A DNA stretch of 64,000 bases from the NCBI GenBank assembly GCA_964413165.1, contig CAYPSF010000002.1, forward strand, positions 7,324 through 71,323, in the 5' to 3' direction. Positions 33,938-63,439 of this stretch are shown piece after piece (the first letter of the stretch is position 1; each line of letters begins with the position of its first letter). Both the position numbers and the translations under genes were made by a program. This stretch comes from an uncultured Bifidobacteriaceae bacterium. GTDB taxonomy: Bacteria > Verrucomicrobiota > Verrucomicrobiia > Limisphaerales > UBA11358. The notes under the pieces were generated by a model. That model was not told the DNA's origin. It ran no database searches and saw only the letters and a list, made by a program, of their open reading frames with translations.

Positions 33938-35179
33938 TCACTTTAGCCCCGCGGCGGCCGCGGGAACAACGCCACTTCGCGGAAAAGAATCGCCATTTTG
34001 CGAACGCCACAATGATGCGCCTGGCCGGCCATGGGCCTTGCGATAGGCGACCGGGCTGAGGTGTTTGTCGGCCTGAAAGTAACGGGCGATATGCTGGGTA
34101 TCCGGGAACCCCAGCAGGTCGGCGATTTTCGCGACCGGCAAATTCGTCTCCACCAGCAATCGCGCAATCTGATCGGTCCGCAGCCGGCGAACTTCTTCCA
34201 AAATGGAACGTCCCAGCTGTTTGCGAAATCGCTTCTCCAGCGCGCGCCGGGACAGGCCGACGGACAGGGCGATTTCATCCACGGAAACTCCGCGGCGCGC
34301 GTGATCACGGATAAATCGCAGCGCCTTGGCCAGATGCGGCTCTTCGGCCGCCACGAAATCCGTTGAGCGGCGCGCCACCACGTGTGAAGCCACGGCGGTG
34401 ATCCGGTCGGGAACGACCCGGGCACCCTGCATCAGACCATCCAGCGCGGACGCCGCTTCATAACCAGCCCGCTCGAAATTGATGGCAATGCTGGACATCG
34501 GAGGATTGGTCAAGCCACAGACGACTTCATCGTTGTCGGCGCCGATGATGCCAACCATGTCCGGCACGGTCAGTCCGGCCAGTTTGCAGACTTCCATCAC
34601 GCGTTGCGCACAATCGTCATTGCAGGCCATCAAGCCGGCCGGTTTGGGGAGCGAATCCAGCCAGCGGGCCAGCAAACGCCATTCCTTGGACCAATCCTTG
34701 GCCAGCGCGGACAAGGTGTAAACCGGCGGGCTTTCAAAGCCGGCTTCCTGGATCCGTTTACAGAAAAATTCCCGGCGAATCTCCGCCCAGGTGGTGTTTT
34801 CATACGGGGTCTTCCGATAACTGCAAAAAGCGAAATGCTTGAAACCGCAGCCCAACAGATGGTCCGCCCCCAGGCGCCCGATGGTCTCCGAATCGGTCAC
34901 CACATTGACCAGGCCGGGGATTTCCGTTTTCCGATGCCCGACCACCACGGTGGGCAGTCCATAGGCCATGATTTCCTCCGCCCCCGCCACATCCCGGAGA
35001 ATAATCCCGTCGGCTTCTCCGGTTTCGAGCAGAGGTTGAACCTTCTCCAGGCCCGCCGGTTCCCAGGAAAACGACCAAGGACCGTGATGGTGCGAATAGT
35101 CAGCTATCCCCCGGAGCAATGCACGCCCTGAAACACGCGAAGATTCAATCAAAAGGATGACTTTGGGGACTCGTAACAT
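33938..35179 (-). CDS. XylR-type hybrid regulator (periplasmic-binding-protein-like sugar sensor plus AraC-family HTH)
   Basis: N-terminal LacI/PBP-like fold (VILLIESSRVSGRALLRGIADY..., GIIGADND). C-terminal AraC HTH (VDEIALSVGLSRRALEKRF...FPDTQHIARYF). Start at ATG 35179. Confidence 0.8.
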   Translation of the reverse strand: MLRVPKVILLIESSRVSGRALLRGIADYSHHHGPWSFSWEPAGLEKVQPLLETGEADGIILRDVAGAEEIMAYGLPTVVVGHRKTEIPGLVNVVTDSETIGRLGADHLLGCGFKHFAFCSYRKTPYENTTWAEIRREFFCKRIQEAGFESPPVYTLSALAKDWSKEWRLLARWLDSLPKPAGLMACNDDCAQRVMEVCKLAGLTVPDMVGIIGADNDEVVCGLTNPPMSSIAINFERAGYEAASALDGLMQGARVVPDRITAVASHVVARRSTDFVAAEEPHLAKALRFIRDHARRGVSVDEIALSVGLSRRALEKRFRKQLGRSILEEVRRLRTDQIARLLVETNLPVAKIADLLGFPDTQHIARYFQADKHLSPVAYRKAHGRPGASLWRSQNGDSFPRSGVVPAAAAGLK

Positions 35180-35354
35180 GTAATAATCCGGTACAACAAC
35201 AAGCCACAGCAACGGGGTTCATCCCCGTGGCTGGACGGCATTGTTCATGGCTTATACTATCACATGCGCCATCGGATGGCTGAACCCGACAGGGAATTTT
35301 GCACTTTATTGAAAATACGGTAAAAATGCAGCAATCAGGGGGAGGGGGAGGCGG

Positions 35355-54064: not shown

Positions 54065-54643
54065 TCAGTATTTCGCCCCATTTCTGCAGCCGGCCAGTTT
54101 CAAAGCGTCGAGGCCCTGCCGGCCACAGTTTGCCTCCACTTCCGGATCCGGGCAGGAACCGTTGCGTTCCAGGCCGGCCCGAATTCCCCGGCCGGAGGAG
54201 AAACGCAGGGTAATACCGCAACTCCGGACAGCCTCCTTGGCTCCGTTCTTGAGCAACCGGTATTCGCTCGGTGCGACCTGGTTGACCGACTTGAAAACAC
54301 GTGAAAAATAGAACGGGTCGTCGTAGCCCAGCTTGGTGGCCACCTCCTTCACACTCAATGCCGTCTCGTCAAGCAACCGGCAGGCATGTTGCATGCGCAG
54401 GCGGATGAAGTAGTCAATGGGAGCACAGCCGACCTGACGTTTGAACAACGCGAAGAAATGGGACGGTGAAACATTGGCCAGGGCCGCGAGCGTGGCCACC
54501 TGTAACGTTTCATCCAGATGCCGCAGCATATAAGTGATGCTTTGCTCAATCTTCCGGACCGCTTCCGATTCGCAAGCCCCCCCCTGACCGCCGGCAGCAT
54601 TGGGAGAGGCCGGTTTCGGAGTTTCAATTTCAACGGTTTTCAT
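54065..54643 (-). CDS. Small AraC-family transcriptional regulator
   Basis: Two HTH units: LAALANVSPSHFFALFKRQVG and VKEVATKLGYDDPFYFSRVFK. Start at ATG 54643 (MKTVEIE...). Confidence 0.8.
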   Translation of the reverse strand: MKTVEIETPKPASPNAAGGQGGACESEAVRKIEQSITYMLRHLDETLQVATLAALANVSPSHFFALFKRQVGCAPIDYFIRLRMQHACRLLDETALSVKEVATKLGYDDPFYFSRVFKSVNQVAPSEYRLLKNGAKEAVRSCGITLRFSSGRGIRAGLERNGSCPDPEVEANCGRQGLDALKLAGCRNGAKY

Positions 54644-54660
54644 TGTCGCTGCACGGCTAA

Positions 54661-54683
54661 AATTAGTTCGCCACACGAACAAA
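54661..54683. promoter_or_regulatory. Operator-like palindrome upstream of the AraC / prepilin / PATR block
   Basis: AATTAGTTCG-CCACA-CGAACAAA, with half-sites TTAGTTCG / TTTGTTCG. It lies 20-40 nt upstream of ATG 54643 and shares the 10-mer AATTAGTTCG with 55974-55983. Confidence 0.4.
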
Positions 54684-54721: not shown

Positions 54722-55933
54722 TCACGCGATCAAAGGCGCGCCAAAATGCTTCTGGAGCACGAGCGCCATGGTCCCCCGCAGCCGGGGTTGCGCTTCCGGG
54801 TCGGTAGGCAAAACCCGCGTGGCCGCATGGGTAAAGGTGCAGCGCCTGACGGCTTCGGTCACGACCGGCCCGACTTTGTCCCAGACCCGTGTCACCTCGC
54901 CCACCACCACCAATACATCCGGTGCCAGCCCGGTCACCAGCATGGCGATGCCGGTGCCCAGATGATGCGCCATTTGATTCAAAGCTTTACAGGCCCGGGC
55001 GTCATTCTGTTCCACCAGTCGCAAGATGTCGCCAAACGGCAGCTTGGCCATGTCACTCTTGGACCCGACCTCGCCTCTGCGGATCGACGCCGACTCAGCG
55101 TAATACCGCACCGCAGCTGAATTGGAAGCCAGCACCTCCCAGCAACCCGTGTTGCCACACCGGCATTTGGGACCGCCGGGCATCTGGGCGACGTGCCCGA
55201 ATTCCCCAGCCACGCCGTTGGAGCCCCGCACCAACTGACCGTTCATGATCATGCCCACACCGATGTCATCCGACACCGTCACGGCCACCAGGTTGCGCAC
55301 ACCATCCATGTGTCGTCCCGACCATAGTTCGGCCAGCGCGCAGGCGTTGGCGGCATTTTCCAGTTCCACCGGCAATCCAATGGCGCGTTCCAAATTCGTC
55401 TTTAAATCCAGATCACTCCAACCCAAGGTGGGCGCAAAGATTAATTGTTGTGACGAAGCGTCTACCCGGCCTGGCAGGCTGATGCCAATACCTTCGTAGG
55501 AGTTTTTGGGATGCGCCCGCATCAAATCCTTGACCCGGCGGCTTAACCGGGCGATGAATTCGGCCGGGTCCCTTTCCGTGGACATGGATTCCTGGGCCAG
55601 AAATTGGCTGTCCATGCCGGCAACCGCCAGGGTGGTTGTGGCCGGTTGAATATCAACGCCCACCACCCCGCACCGCTCGGTGTTCAAATGCAGAAAGGTC
55701 GGCTTGCGCCCGCGAGGCAGATCACCAACCGCCCCTTCCTTCAACCAGCGTTCCGCAATCAACTGCTCGGCAATCGCCGACACGGTACTGCGTTGCAACC
55801 CTGAGAAACGCATCAAATCGGCCCGGGAAACCGGTTGGTGCTTGCGCACCAAATTCAACATGATGCGACTGTTGATGTCGCGGACCGTTTCACTGGTCGC
55901 TACCTGAAAGTTGTTCAGATCAATTTTGCGCAC
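54722..55933 (-). CDS. ROK-family transcriptional regulator (XylR/NagC-like repressor)
   Basis: N-terminal winged HTH (INSRIMLNLVRKHQPVSRADLMRFSGLQRSTVSAIAEQL). ROK sugar-kinase fold with the zinc motif CRCGNTGCWE. GTG start at 55933. Confidence 0.85.
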   Translation of the reverse strand: MRKIDLNNFQVATSETVRDINSRIMLNLVRKHQPVSRADLMRFSGLQRSTVSAIAEQLIAERWLKEGAVGDLPRGRKPTFLHLNTERCGVVGVDIQPATTTLAVAGMDSQFLAQESMSTERDPAEFIARLSRRVKDLMRAHPKNSYEGIGISLPGRVDASSQQLIFAPTLGWSDLDLKTNLERAIGLPVELENAANACALAELWSGRHMDGVRNLVAVTVSDDIGVGMIMNGQLVRGSNGVAGEFGHVAQMPGGPKCRCGNTGCWEVLASNSAAVRYYAESASIRRGEVGSKSDMAKLPFGDILRLVEQNDARACKALNQMAHHLGTGIAMLVTGLAPDVLVVVGEVTRVWDKVGPVVTEAVRRCTFTHAATRVLPTDPEAQPRLRGTMALVLQKHFGAPLIA

Positions 55934-55973: not shown

Positions 55974-56003
55974 AATTAGTTCGTATGTCGAATTTTATTA
56001 GTT
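55974..56003. promoter_or_regulatory. Operator-like sites upstream of the ROK regulator gene
   Basis: AATTAGTTCG-TATGT-CGAATTTT is followed by a second ATTAGTTTAG 22 nt downstream. The sites lie 40-70 nt upstream of the ROK start in an AT-rich divergent region. Confidence 0.4.
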
Positions 56004-56210
56004 TAGCCCTGTCTGTCAAGGGTAAAGTTTGAGGGTCGAACAAATTCATTGTAACCATGCCAGAATTAAGAGCTTAAAGTTAGAGCATTATCAACGGTTA
56101 CCAACCGGTTCAATTTTCAGCCATTAAACCCCGTTAATACAGGGATTTTGCTGTGGTCTCCCCGCAGGCGAACTCCAGCTATCAGCCGGGGTCAACCCCG
56201 GCAAAACGAT

Positions 56211-56249
56211 TGGAGTATCCTCCATGCGAATCGTAATATTGTCCATTCC
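56211..56249 (+). promoter_or_regulatory. Copy A of the conserved cis-element, upstream of the GH8 gene
   Basis: TGGAGTATCCTCCATGCGAATCGTAATATTGTCCATTCC. By my count 34/39 nt are identical to copy B. It contains the TGGAG-N4-CTCCA inverted repeat and TCCAT direct repeats 21 bp apart. Confidence 0.6.
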
Positions 56250-56276
56250 GTGACCTGCCAGGATGCAGTTTAGTGG

Positions 56277-60066: not shown

Positions 60067-60197
60067 GGATGATGAATTAATACACCCTCGACCTTCATTT
60101 TTTCGCTGACCACCACCGGCGGTGTTAAGTGTTAACTTTCGGTAGTGTATTGTTTTCTAATTCTTCGTGGCATCGATTTCAAGAACGAAATCGTAAA

Positions 60198-60227
60198 TCC
60201 AGTCAAAAACATAGTATTGTCCATTCC
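60198..60227 (+). promoter_or_regulatory. Copy C (more divergent) of the conserved cis-element, upstream of the GH115 gene
   Basis: TCCAGTCAAAAACATAGTATTGTCCATTCC, with 22-bp half-site spacing. It is preceded by the inverted repeat CGATTTC-N6-GAAATCG (60173-60192). Confidence 0.45.
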
Positions 60228-63321: not shown

Positions 63322-63360
63322 TGGAGGATTCTCCATGCAAATCGTAGTATCGTCCATTCC
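63322..63360 (+). promoter_or_regulatory. Copy B of the conserved cis-element, upstream of the GH3 gene
   Basis: TGGAGGATTCTCCATGCAAATCGTAGTATCGTCCATTCC. It is followed by a possible TTGCGA-N16-TATTTT promoter and then ATG 63440. Confidence 0.6.
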
Positions 63361-63439
63361 TGCTCAAGATTGCGATTGAAATACTGCGCGCTATTTTAGA
63401 ACGTGGCAAACATGTCCGAGCCGCTATGCAAAATGTAAC

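Follow-up and report, generated by a model that had tools for sequence, protein, structure and literature searches.

Why do near-identical elements of about 39 bp stand before several xylan and xylose genes in one stretch of an uncultured bacterium's genome, and which protein reads them? The stretch in question (hereafter the window) comprises 64,000 nucleotides of contig CAYPSF010000002.1, positions 7,324 to 71,323 (G000:C2:7324-71323 in our own numbering), from an assembly of 4.93 Mb in 356 contigs with 58.6% G+C, whose lineage belongs to the Limisphaerales (Verrucomicrobiota). Sequence comparison indicates that the element, called the box below, is the cis-regulatory element of a Limisphaerales regulon for xylan and xylose utilisation. 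As a whole, the observations are best explained, with a probability of roughly two in three, by a box that would be bound by the product of a short AraC-type gene of the same window, araC205, which would itself stand under the control of a neighbouring ROK-family repressor in a ROK-AraC cascade.

Three copies of the box in the window are well preserved. The one before the GH8 (glycoside hydrolase family 8) gene, which is divergent from the ROK-family gene rok, is TGGAGTATCCTCCATGCGAATCGTAATATTGTCCATTCC (56211-56249, plus strand), with the two units of its internal repeat at 56213-56227 and 56234-56248; it scores 52.6 bits with a position weight matrix made from four sites, 56 bits with one made from 22 sites, and E 7e-12 with R1, a sequence-only covariance model built on 22 sites (alignment A1). 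The copy before the GH3 gene, TGGAGGATTCTCCATGCAAATCGTAGTATCGTCCATTCC (63322-63360, plus strand), is the top one of the genome (54.8 bits; R1 E 2e-13), and a third, CAGAGGATTGTCCATGCGAAACATATTTTCATCCATTCC (42612-42574, minus strand), precedes the xylA-GH43 operon. A degenerate copy stands before the GH115 gene (60189-60227, plus strand), where unit 2 (CATAGTATTGTCCATTCC) is intact and unit 1 is eroded, its TCCAG lying 1 bp upstream of the expected TCCAT position and thus out of register; this copy reaches 20.6 bits, and its R1 match is restricted to model positions 23-46 (E 1e-3). The identities of the genes (GH8, GH115, GH3, GH43 with GH43_C2, and a xylose-isomerase-like TIM barrel) were obtained from Pfam. 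All four copies are intergenic and have the orientation of the gene downstream, just as an earlier reading of the window, made from the sequence only, had described them; the elements it listed, the more divergent one included, were all found in place.

The specificity of the box for these genes is clear from its distribution. The window contains three exact matches to its core pattern, TCCATGCRAA-N11-TCCATTCC, and four matches when at most three mismatches are allowed, against 0.14 expected, and none of 100 shuffles attained four. Over the whole assembly the 39-bp matrix finds four sites at 49-55 bits, the runner-up having only 25.7 bits. The fourth strong copy (C103:11852) lies about 110 nt 5' of a gene for a GH11 xylanase (Pfam, 1e-46), and the strong copies altogether (GH8, GH3, xylA and GH11) are found 60-200 nt upstream of their genes. 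As all strong copies stand before xylan or xylose genes, the element does not behave as a dispersed repeat, and the sequence-only reading, which had taken it for a regulon box and had not seen it upstream of the mannan and arabinan genes, is borne out by the genome scan and by the absence of the box from that part of the window. The fifth-best site (G000:C264:2207-2245, in locus L002; 25.7 bits), 16 nt 5' of a gene for a secreted beta-propeller-like protein (L002:2261-3385), could be the remains of a box or have arisen by chance.

The box is conserved well beyond this genome. Among the related records, which are Limisphaerales metagenome bins from peat and soil, R1 has matches at E <= 0.01 in 71 of the 151 genomes of this genus and at E <= 1e-8 in about 35, with one to seven boxes per matching genome, frequently clustered within 20-30 kb. 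Of about 138 genomes belonging to other families of the order, four have a match as well, and in these the box is found before GH3 orthologues (G185, G210) or before xylA (G233, G244). The loci fetched for this work yielded 72 distinct sites, 68 of them above 40 bits. The first gene 3' of the box is GH3 at 17 of the 72, GH8 at ten and xylA at six, and genes for GH43 beta-xylosidase, GH31 with PA14, GH10, GH11 and PD40 propeller proteins are also met in this position; in turn, GH3 or GH3-like genes in 16 other collected loci, and xylA orthologues in five other loci of the genus, have a box. In the largest class of first genes, met at 24 of the 72 sites, the product is a secreted protein of 250-830 amino acids with no Pfam or NCBIfam domain, a PEP-CTERM tail being the sole recognisable feature in the members checked. 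These PEP-CTERM-type proteins are candidates for xylan-binding or xylan-processing proteins at the cell surface; examples from related genomes, some with a PEP-CTERM end, are L083:6988-7827, L049:3336-5840 and L080:13763-16039. In some genomes the box-controlled GH8 is a fusion of 820-830 amino acids (L087:13152-15650 in G138; L081:1525-3990 in G066), whose N-terminal part of about 400 amino acids looks esterase-like when judged by eye.

The alignment of the 68 sites shows what kind of element this is. In its consensus, nnGAGAATTnTCCATGCRAAWCRTAGYWTYRTCCATTCC, columns 3-17 and 24-38 are one 15-bp unit in direct repeat, [G/T]AGnAT[T/C]nTCCAT[G/T]C, with starts 21 bp (i.e., two helical turns) apart. 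The two units share 9.4 of 15 identities at an offset of 21, as against about 3.4 elsewhere (2.4-3.7 at offsets of 18-20 and 22-24). These are asymmetric half-sites in a direct repeat of the AraC/XylS type, and the 21-bp spacing, which the sequence-only reading had noticed and likened to that of AraC-family sites, is borne out by the average over the 68 sites. The same cannot be said of two other parts of the architecture it had proposed. Only 16 of the 68 sites have a perfect inverted repeat TGGAG-N4-CTCCA, which has no counterpart in unit 2 and is not a defining feature of the box. The internal TAATAT/TAGTAT (positions 24-29), suggested to be a -10 element, belongs to the repeat, because it has its unit-1 counterpart in the GAGAAT of positions 3-8; a separate -10-like block lies further downstream.

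When the 68 sites are aligned on the box, conservation falls to background after position 39 and rises again at 55-64 (consensus TTGAAATAnT), with a second peak at positions 56-64, so that a conserved block lies 17-25 nt 3' of the box. A TAnnnT starting at box positions 57-61 is present in 32 of the 68 sites, compared with 0-10 in 5-nt control windows outside 55-64. The block varies with the type of gene. Before the PEP-CTERM genes it reads TGATAAT, TGATAGTAT or TGATATAAT; before xylA, TGTAATTT or ATATAGATT; before GH3, and also in the two genomes of other families (G185 and G210), TTGAAATACT, which keeps its register in nearly all GH3-type loci, one of them having TTGAAATGCT; and in the GH8, GH43 and PD40 groups GCAGTTTAGTG, containing GTTTAGT, at the same register. 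Several of these blocks are textbook extended -10 elements (TGnTAnnnT), and we read the block as the -10 of the promoter. In the window, the predicted -10 of the GH8 promoter is TTTAGT (56269-56274, plus strand; box positions 59-64) and the predicted extended -10 of the GH3 promoter is TG-a-AATACT (63377-63385, plus strand; box positions 56-64), both in the conserved register. A promoter scanner called no sigma-70 promoter for GH8; the same scanner found the canonical promoter of rok, TTGACA-N16-TAAAAT (55992-56019, minus strand), which has 11 of 12 matches and is conserved in orthologous loci, and it follows that the organism uses canonical sigma-70 hexamers. If the -10 occupies box positions 59-64, the place of a -35 would be 36-41 (TTCCnn), and the box would then span about -70 to -32 relative to the predicted transcription start, with its final 4 bp overlapping the -35. 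By comparison with known systems, this predicted layout would be that of AraC/XylS-type class II activators.

Which regulator binds the box? The window encodes three candidates, namely a hybrid of a periplasmic-binding-protein-like sugar-binding domain and an AraC domain (33938-35212), a short AraC (54065-54682 as open reading frame) and a ROK protein (54722-55933), and the three were compared by tblastn with all fetched box loci. The short AraC is the best candidate, as judged from its family, its distribution and its recognition helix. Its TTG start at 54682 is spurious, because it lies inside a ROK-type palindrome (palindrome 3, below), and the alignment of orthologues places the true start at the ATG of 54643, giving a protein of 192 rather than 205 amino acids (araC205, 54065-54643, minus strand). 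Pfam finds HTH_18 (4e-22) and HTH_AraC in it and nothing further; its top NCBIfam match is the C-terminal DNA-binding domain of Escherichia coli AraC (1e-22), and its top sequence matches in the PDB are the AraC-type DNA-binding domains 6swi and 2k9s. An AlphaFold2 model made with 15 orthologues has seven helices over residues 21-140, with a confidence score (pLDDT) above 93 over residues 31-130 or so and with both tails disordered. In Foldseek comparisons this model reaches TM-scores of 0.89 with the DNA-binding domain of AdpA (3w6v), 0.81 with that of AraC (2k9s), 0.79 with SoxS (7w5w) and 0.77 with MarA (1bl0). The protein thus has the DNA-binding domain of about 100 amino acids, with two helix-turn-helix motifs and seven helices, that characterises the AraC/XylS family, and no N-terminal effector or dimerisation domain, as the roughly 20 residues before the core and 50 after it are disordered and poorly conserved. 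Given that these tails are disordered, and variable or missing among orthologues, AraC205 is a stand-alone DNA-binding domain of the MarA/SoxS type.

What ties this protein to the box is their common occurrence. In some 45 genomes a homologue of araC205 shares its contig with a box, mostly at a distance of no more than about 2 kb, and among the 35 genomes with strong boxes 31 have a gene of the araC205 family and 26 have rok. The short AraC and ROK adjoin boxes in nearly every cluster, the usual order being rok, araC, a pilin-like gene, the box and a secreted-protein gene. When the label 'box within 4 kb' is mapped onto a tree of 80 homologues, it needs 16 changes, against 26.7 in shuffles, and none of 500 shuffles was as low, although the contrast is inflated by the relatedness of the genomes. 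In addition, two box-associated clades of araC205, only about 57% identical to each other, have a common recognition helix 3, SH[F/Y]FALFKRQ, whereas clades without a nearby box have HYSALFKRW, HFTALFKRY or HFF[Y/C]LFKRH. The suggestion of the sequence-only reading that the box belongs to a local regulator therefore stands in part: its vaguer option of an AraC protein fits araC205, and the XylR-like hybrid that it favoured does not hold up, for reasons given below.

The gene rok (54722-55933, minus strand) encodes a ROK-family regulator with an N-terminal helix-turn-helix domain, proposed here as the sugar-sensing repressor (Pfam ROK; full-length NCBIfam matches to NagC and Mlc), and its orthologues, 56-91% identical, lie beside araC205 in most loci. 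It has binding-site candidates of its own, which are unlike the box: palindromes with the consensus TTnGTTCG-N5-CGAACnAA. Palindrome 1, AAGTTTGAGGGTCGAACAA (56025-56043; above 21 bits), is directly 5' of the rok -35; palindrome 2, TAGTTCGTATGTCGAATTT (55977-55995), overlaps the rok -10 and start region; palindrome 3, TAGTTCGCCACACGAACAA (54664-54682), lies about 20 nt 5' of the araC205 ATG. In the upstream regions of rok from eleven loci, most have the same canonical promoter, in most cases flanked by two palindromes, the first (TTTGTTCG-N5-CGAACTTT) just 5' of the -35 and the second (AGTTCG-N5-CGAACTAAT) over the -10 and start region; the third, before the araC205 ATG, is TTTGTTCGTGTGGCGAACTAAT. 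A looser operator pattern gave 394 matches, mostly by chance, and a symmetrised position weight matrix was used in its place; with it, four sites of the genome exceed 21 bits, three at rok-araC205 and one before a paralogous araC on contig C4. The simplest reading of this distribution is that ROK would control the regulator operon alone.

The loci from which rok is missing are informative as well. Where rok is retained, palindrome 3 is intact at most loci; at L100, L105, L107 and L111, which have no ROK, it is eroded or absent, L113 being an exception. Four largely complete genomes (G104, G108, G121 and G142) have araC205 and boxes and no rok. Three of these keep a rok remnant of 30-36 codons beside araC205 (L183:8260-8349 in G104, L184:14892-14987 in G108 and L084:3184-3291 in G142), and in G121 (L107:3850-4000) the rok promoter stands directly in front of araC205. 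We read these loci as repeated losses of rok next to araC205. Since the four genomes keep araC205 and boxes without rok, the box does not depend on ROK.

Paralogous regulators are present in the same genome. A second ROK-AraC pair (G000:C4:58796-60603, locus L179), with ROK 81% and AraC 53-58% identical, has the same palindrome before its araC (at C4:59334), and a third paralogue consists of AraC only (G000:C48:24797-25234, L180). A related clade of AraC proteins, 'group 2', differs in its recognition helix (HYSALFKRW), and its genes are without a canonical box within 4 kb. In the search for a target motif of the group 2 ROK-AraC pairs, common 10-mers gave only ROK palindromes and coding sequence, and a census of 5-mers repeated at 21 bp gave nothing, although it recovers TCCAT in 14 of 17 group-1 loci; a scan for 13-mer direct repeats at 21 bp proved too strict even for true boxes.

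Taken together, these observations suggest a cascade from ROK to AraC to box. ROK would repress the rok-araC205 operon through the palindromes that bracket the rok promoter and the one that precedes araC205. Xylose or a xylo-oligosaccharide would release it, by analogy with ROK-type XylR, and AraC205 would then be produced and switch on the box promoters. At these promoters each of the two repeats would be occupied by one copy of AraC205, the two lying on the same face of the helix and recruiting RNA polymerase to a -10 that has no -35, i.e., class II activation as with XylS, AraC, RhaS, MarA or SoxS. As AraC205 has no ligand-binding domain, the sugar signal most likely enters through its amount. 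In lineages without ROK, the regulon would be constitutive or otherwise controlled.

In its logic, the proposed circuit resembles MarR-MarA, SoxR-SoxS and XylR-XylS. The site of XylS consists of two 15-bp direct repeats, each divided into a 5' and a 3' sub-box and bound by one monomer; it overlaps the site of RNA polymerase, and the amount of XylS is set by an upstream regulator, XylR, which controls xylS (PMC5481539); binding by AraC205 and control by ROK are proposed here in like manner. The differences are that the XylS repeat is TGCA-N6-GGTA as opposed to [G/T]AGnAT-N2-TCCAT, that XylS has the N-terminal effector and dimerisation domain that AraC205 lacks, that its upstream regulator is a sigma-54 activator instead of a ROK repressor, and that it responds to aromatics whereas here the substrate is plant xylan. 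MarA, SoxS and Rob are likewise DNA-binding domains only, of about 110 structured residues (1bl0 and 7w5w in the Foldseek comparison), and the activity of AraC205, as in MarR-MarA and SoxR-SoxS, would presumably be set by its own transcription under an adjacently encoded sensor regulator. MarA and SoxS, however, bind a single asymmetric 20-bp box as monomers, while here there are two tandem sites, the sensor would be a ROK sugar repressor, and the regulon concerns carbohydrate catabolism, not stress.

At araI1-I2 of E. coli, the proximal AraC half-site overlaps the -35. AraC has the closest named DNA-binding domain to that of AraC205 (NCBIfam AraC, 1e-22; PDB 2k9s), and its asymmetric half-sites, too, are in direct repeat every 21 bp. 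The 17-bp I1 half-site (TAGCATTTTTATCCATA) contains TAGC and, further on, TCCATA (PMC2241862), and unit 2 of the box (TAGCATCGTCCAT) also contains TAGC and TCCAT. Even so, TAG lies at a distance of 8 bp from TCCAT in the box unit and of 11 bp in araI1; the geometry of recognition therefore cannot be identical, and we rejected an identity of the box unit with the I1 half-site on account of this 3-bp difference in sub-box spacing. AraC205 also differs from AraC in having no arabinose-binding or dimerisation domain, and there is no sign of looping sites here.

Several observations weigh against this interpretation. Four genomes of the genus with strong boxes (G012, G048, G069 and G089; 73-93% complete) are without a gene of the araC205 family, their best AraC match being 36-40% identical, and G089 has a ROK gene and no araC205 beside its box. 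In the other families, G244 is without araC205, G185 has just a 39% identical homologue in an open frame of 170 amino acids, and in G210 and G233 the regulator pair and the box are on different contigs. The genomes without araC205 may be explained by assembly gaps, yet they are the main evidence against the assignment. That regulator and box lie together in genomes related to one another cannot count as independent evidence. As to the promoters, the GH8-type (TTTAGT) and GH3-type (AATACT) blocks deviate from TAnnnT at a key position, and the xylA copy of the window itself has no clear -10 at the expected register. Finally, rok is missing in nine of the 35 box-bearing genomes, and the cascade is therefore not obligatory.

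The first of these points could also mean that the box is bound by another, unlinked transcription factor (e.g., a two-domain AraC encoded elsewhere), with araC205 a mere neighbour that regulates, for instance, the adjacent pilin-like and large secreted-protein genes. We consider this unlikely, though of all alternatives it deserves the most attention. Five box-bearing genomes have no close araC205 homologue, no box stands before the genes immediately 3' of araC205 in the window, and a variant of the box adjoins AraC genes of about 300 amino acids in three genomes. On the other hand, the co-localisation of araC205 with the box is systematic across about 45 genomes, helix 3 is common to the box-associated clades, the box directly follows the pair of araC205 and pilin-like gene in many genomes, and the genomes without araC205 are fragmented or incomplete metagenome bins. 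The variant box just mentioned, CAATTATCCATGCnnnTTGTTAGAATGTCCATTCC, has the same TCCAT-N16-TCCAT frame (L022:1491-1529 in G003:C29, L012 in G008:C324 and L016 in G018:C41); the two-domain AraC genes beside it are 45-48% identical in the helix-turn-helix region, and one copy precedes what its sequence suggests is an MFS-type sugar transporter.

That ROK itself binds the box, as a xylose-responsive repressor, is improbable. It is true that in Firmicutes and Thermotogae the genes for xylose and xylan use are under ROK-type XylR proteins (PMC2873477, PMC3553997), that rok adjoins boxes in many genomes, and that in G089 rok and not araC205 is found there. ROK regulators, however, bind palindromes (PMC3553997), whereas the box is a direct repeat whose inconstant inverted repeat does not make it the palindrome of about 19-25 bp that a ROK operator would be, and a separate family of palindromes is at hand at the rok promoter and before araC205, with its one strong site elsewhere before the paralogous araC on C4. 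Moreover, rok was not found in nine of the 35 strong-box genomes, including the near-complete G121, G142, G104 and G108, three of which keep remnants. The ROK-family XylR regulons resemble the present one in their xylose and xylan genes, palindromic operators and autoregulation (PMC2873477, PMC3553997), and differ from it in that here the palindromes are confined to the regulator operon and the enzyme genes have an AraC-type box.

It is equally improbable that the element is itself a core promoter, in which TAGTAT would serve as -10 and GGAGAA as an unusual -35, recognised by the housekeeping sigma factor or an alternative one (e.g., the extracytoplasmic-function (ECF) sigma factor encoded at about 37.6-38.3 kb of the window), and with the TCCAT repeats as repressor sites around the start. 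The nearly invariant TA at box positions 24-25 and T at 29, with varying positions in between, do have the pattern of a -10 hexamer. This hexamer pattern, nAGnAT, nevertheless recurs 21 bp upstream and is hence part of the repeat; the sequence 17 bp 5' of TAGnAT is nnGAGA, unlike TTGACA; no promoter was called over the box; and the fixed and often perfect extended -10 (TGATATAAT, TGATAAT) downstream, which is the better -10, would be left unexplained. The organism's own rok promoter, too, has canonical hexamers. The kinase coupled to the ECF sigma factor has no homologue in any fetched box locus, and no GGAAC or CGTC pattern of an ECF promoter was found. A sigma-54 promoter was rejected because the GG and GC in TGGAGGATTCTCCATGCA are 14 bp apart, not 12.

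The XylR-like hybrid (placed at 33938-35179 by the sequence-only reading), which that reading had thought the most plausible regulator, is a most unlikely binder of the box. It is an AraC-family protein with a sugar-binding domain and shares its domain architecture with E. coli XylR (PDB 4fe4 and 4fe7 are among the matches). Still, in tblastn searches of all fetched box loci it adjoins the box in no other genome. G121 (96% complete, seven contigs, at least four boxes) contains no match to it, and G142, G016 and G138 have only paralogues of 32-33% identity, so that the hybrid is missing or this diverged in four of the five box genomes checked; it heads a module of its own (regulator, pilin-like gene and secreted-protein gene). 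Lastly, a transcribed RNA element or a mobile or dispersed repeat is hardly conceivable, for although the GH3 copy can fold (z = -2.4), the folds differ among copies, two of which fold no better than shuffles, the inverted repeat is not conserved, the window has no Rfam match, and merely four strong copies in 4.9 Mb, all in xylan or xylose promoters, do not resemble a repetitive extragenic palindrome, a miniature inverted-repeat transposable element or any known RNA family.

A box read by AraC205 would matter because of the bacteria in which it is found. In peat and soil, Limisphaerales and related Verrucomicrobia are abundant and break down plant polymers, and we know of no cultured model among them. 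Our search of the literature found no earlier description of the box, or of a ROK-AraC cascade, in Verrucomicrobia, nor of any transcription-factor regulon in Limisphaerales and related Verrucomicrobia; the regulon, its predicted regulator and the suggested cascade are thus new, in a lineage without cultured representatives. A tandem direct-repeat site for an AraC/XylS-type activator is a classical kind of element, so that the value of the finding lies in annotation and in opening these bacteria to experiment, and not in a new principle. A box of about 50 bits would predict xylan-responsive genes in hundreds of metagenome-assembled genomes, and it flags a large class of secreted proteins without assigned function as putative members of the xylan response. 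It would also be a first handle on how Verrucomicrobia of peat and soil switch on the digestion of plant fibre, and the compact pair of a 192-amino-acid candidate activator and a 39-bp site, testable in E. coli, might serve as an expression switch.

It is tempting to generalise, though only tentatively, since we hold the following to be possible rather than probable. Glycan loci of Limisphaerales may be under a modular two-tier circuit, in which ROK represses only its own operon and the AraC of that operon, a DNA-binding domain alone, activates a dispersed regulon through the 39-bp box, with paralogous pairs (that on C4, and group 2) serving other glycans and with the PEP-CTERM proteins as new components of xylan capture or processing. 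Such a circuit, if true, would correspond in Verrucomicrobia to the control of polysaccharide utilisation loci in Bacteroidota by SusR, hybrid two-component and ECF regulators.

The survey of rok-araC loci also brought up a peculiarity of the public records. Contigs typical of Limisphaerales in their rok-araC genes are filed in bins named Bifidobacteriaceae, Acidoferrum, Sulfopaludibacter, Limnocylindrales, Pseudomonadales, Sulfotelmatobacter and Binatia (loci L106, L113, L117, L135, L137, L155, L161 and L170), and these eight contigs are probably mis-binned or mislabelled.

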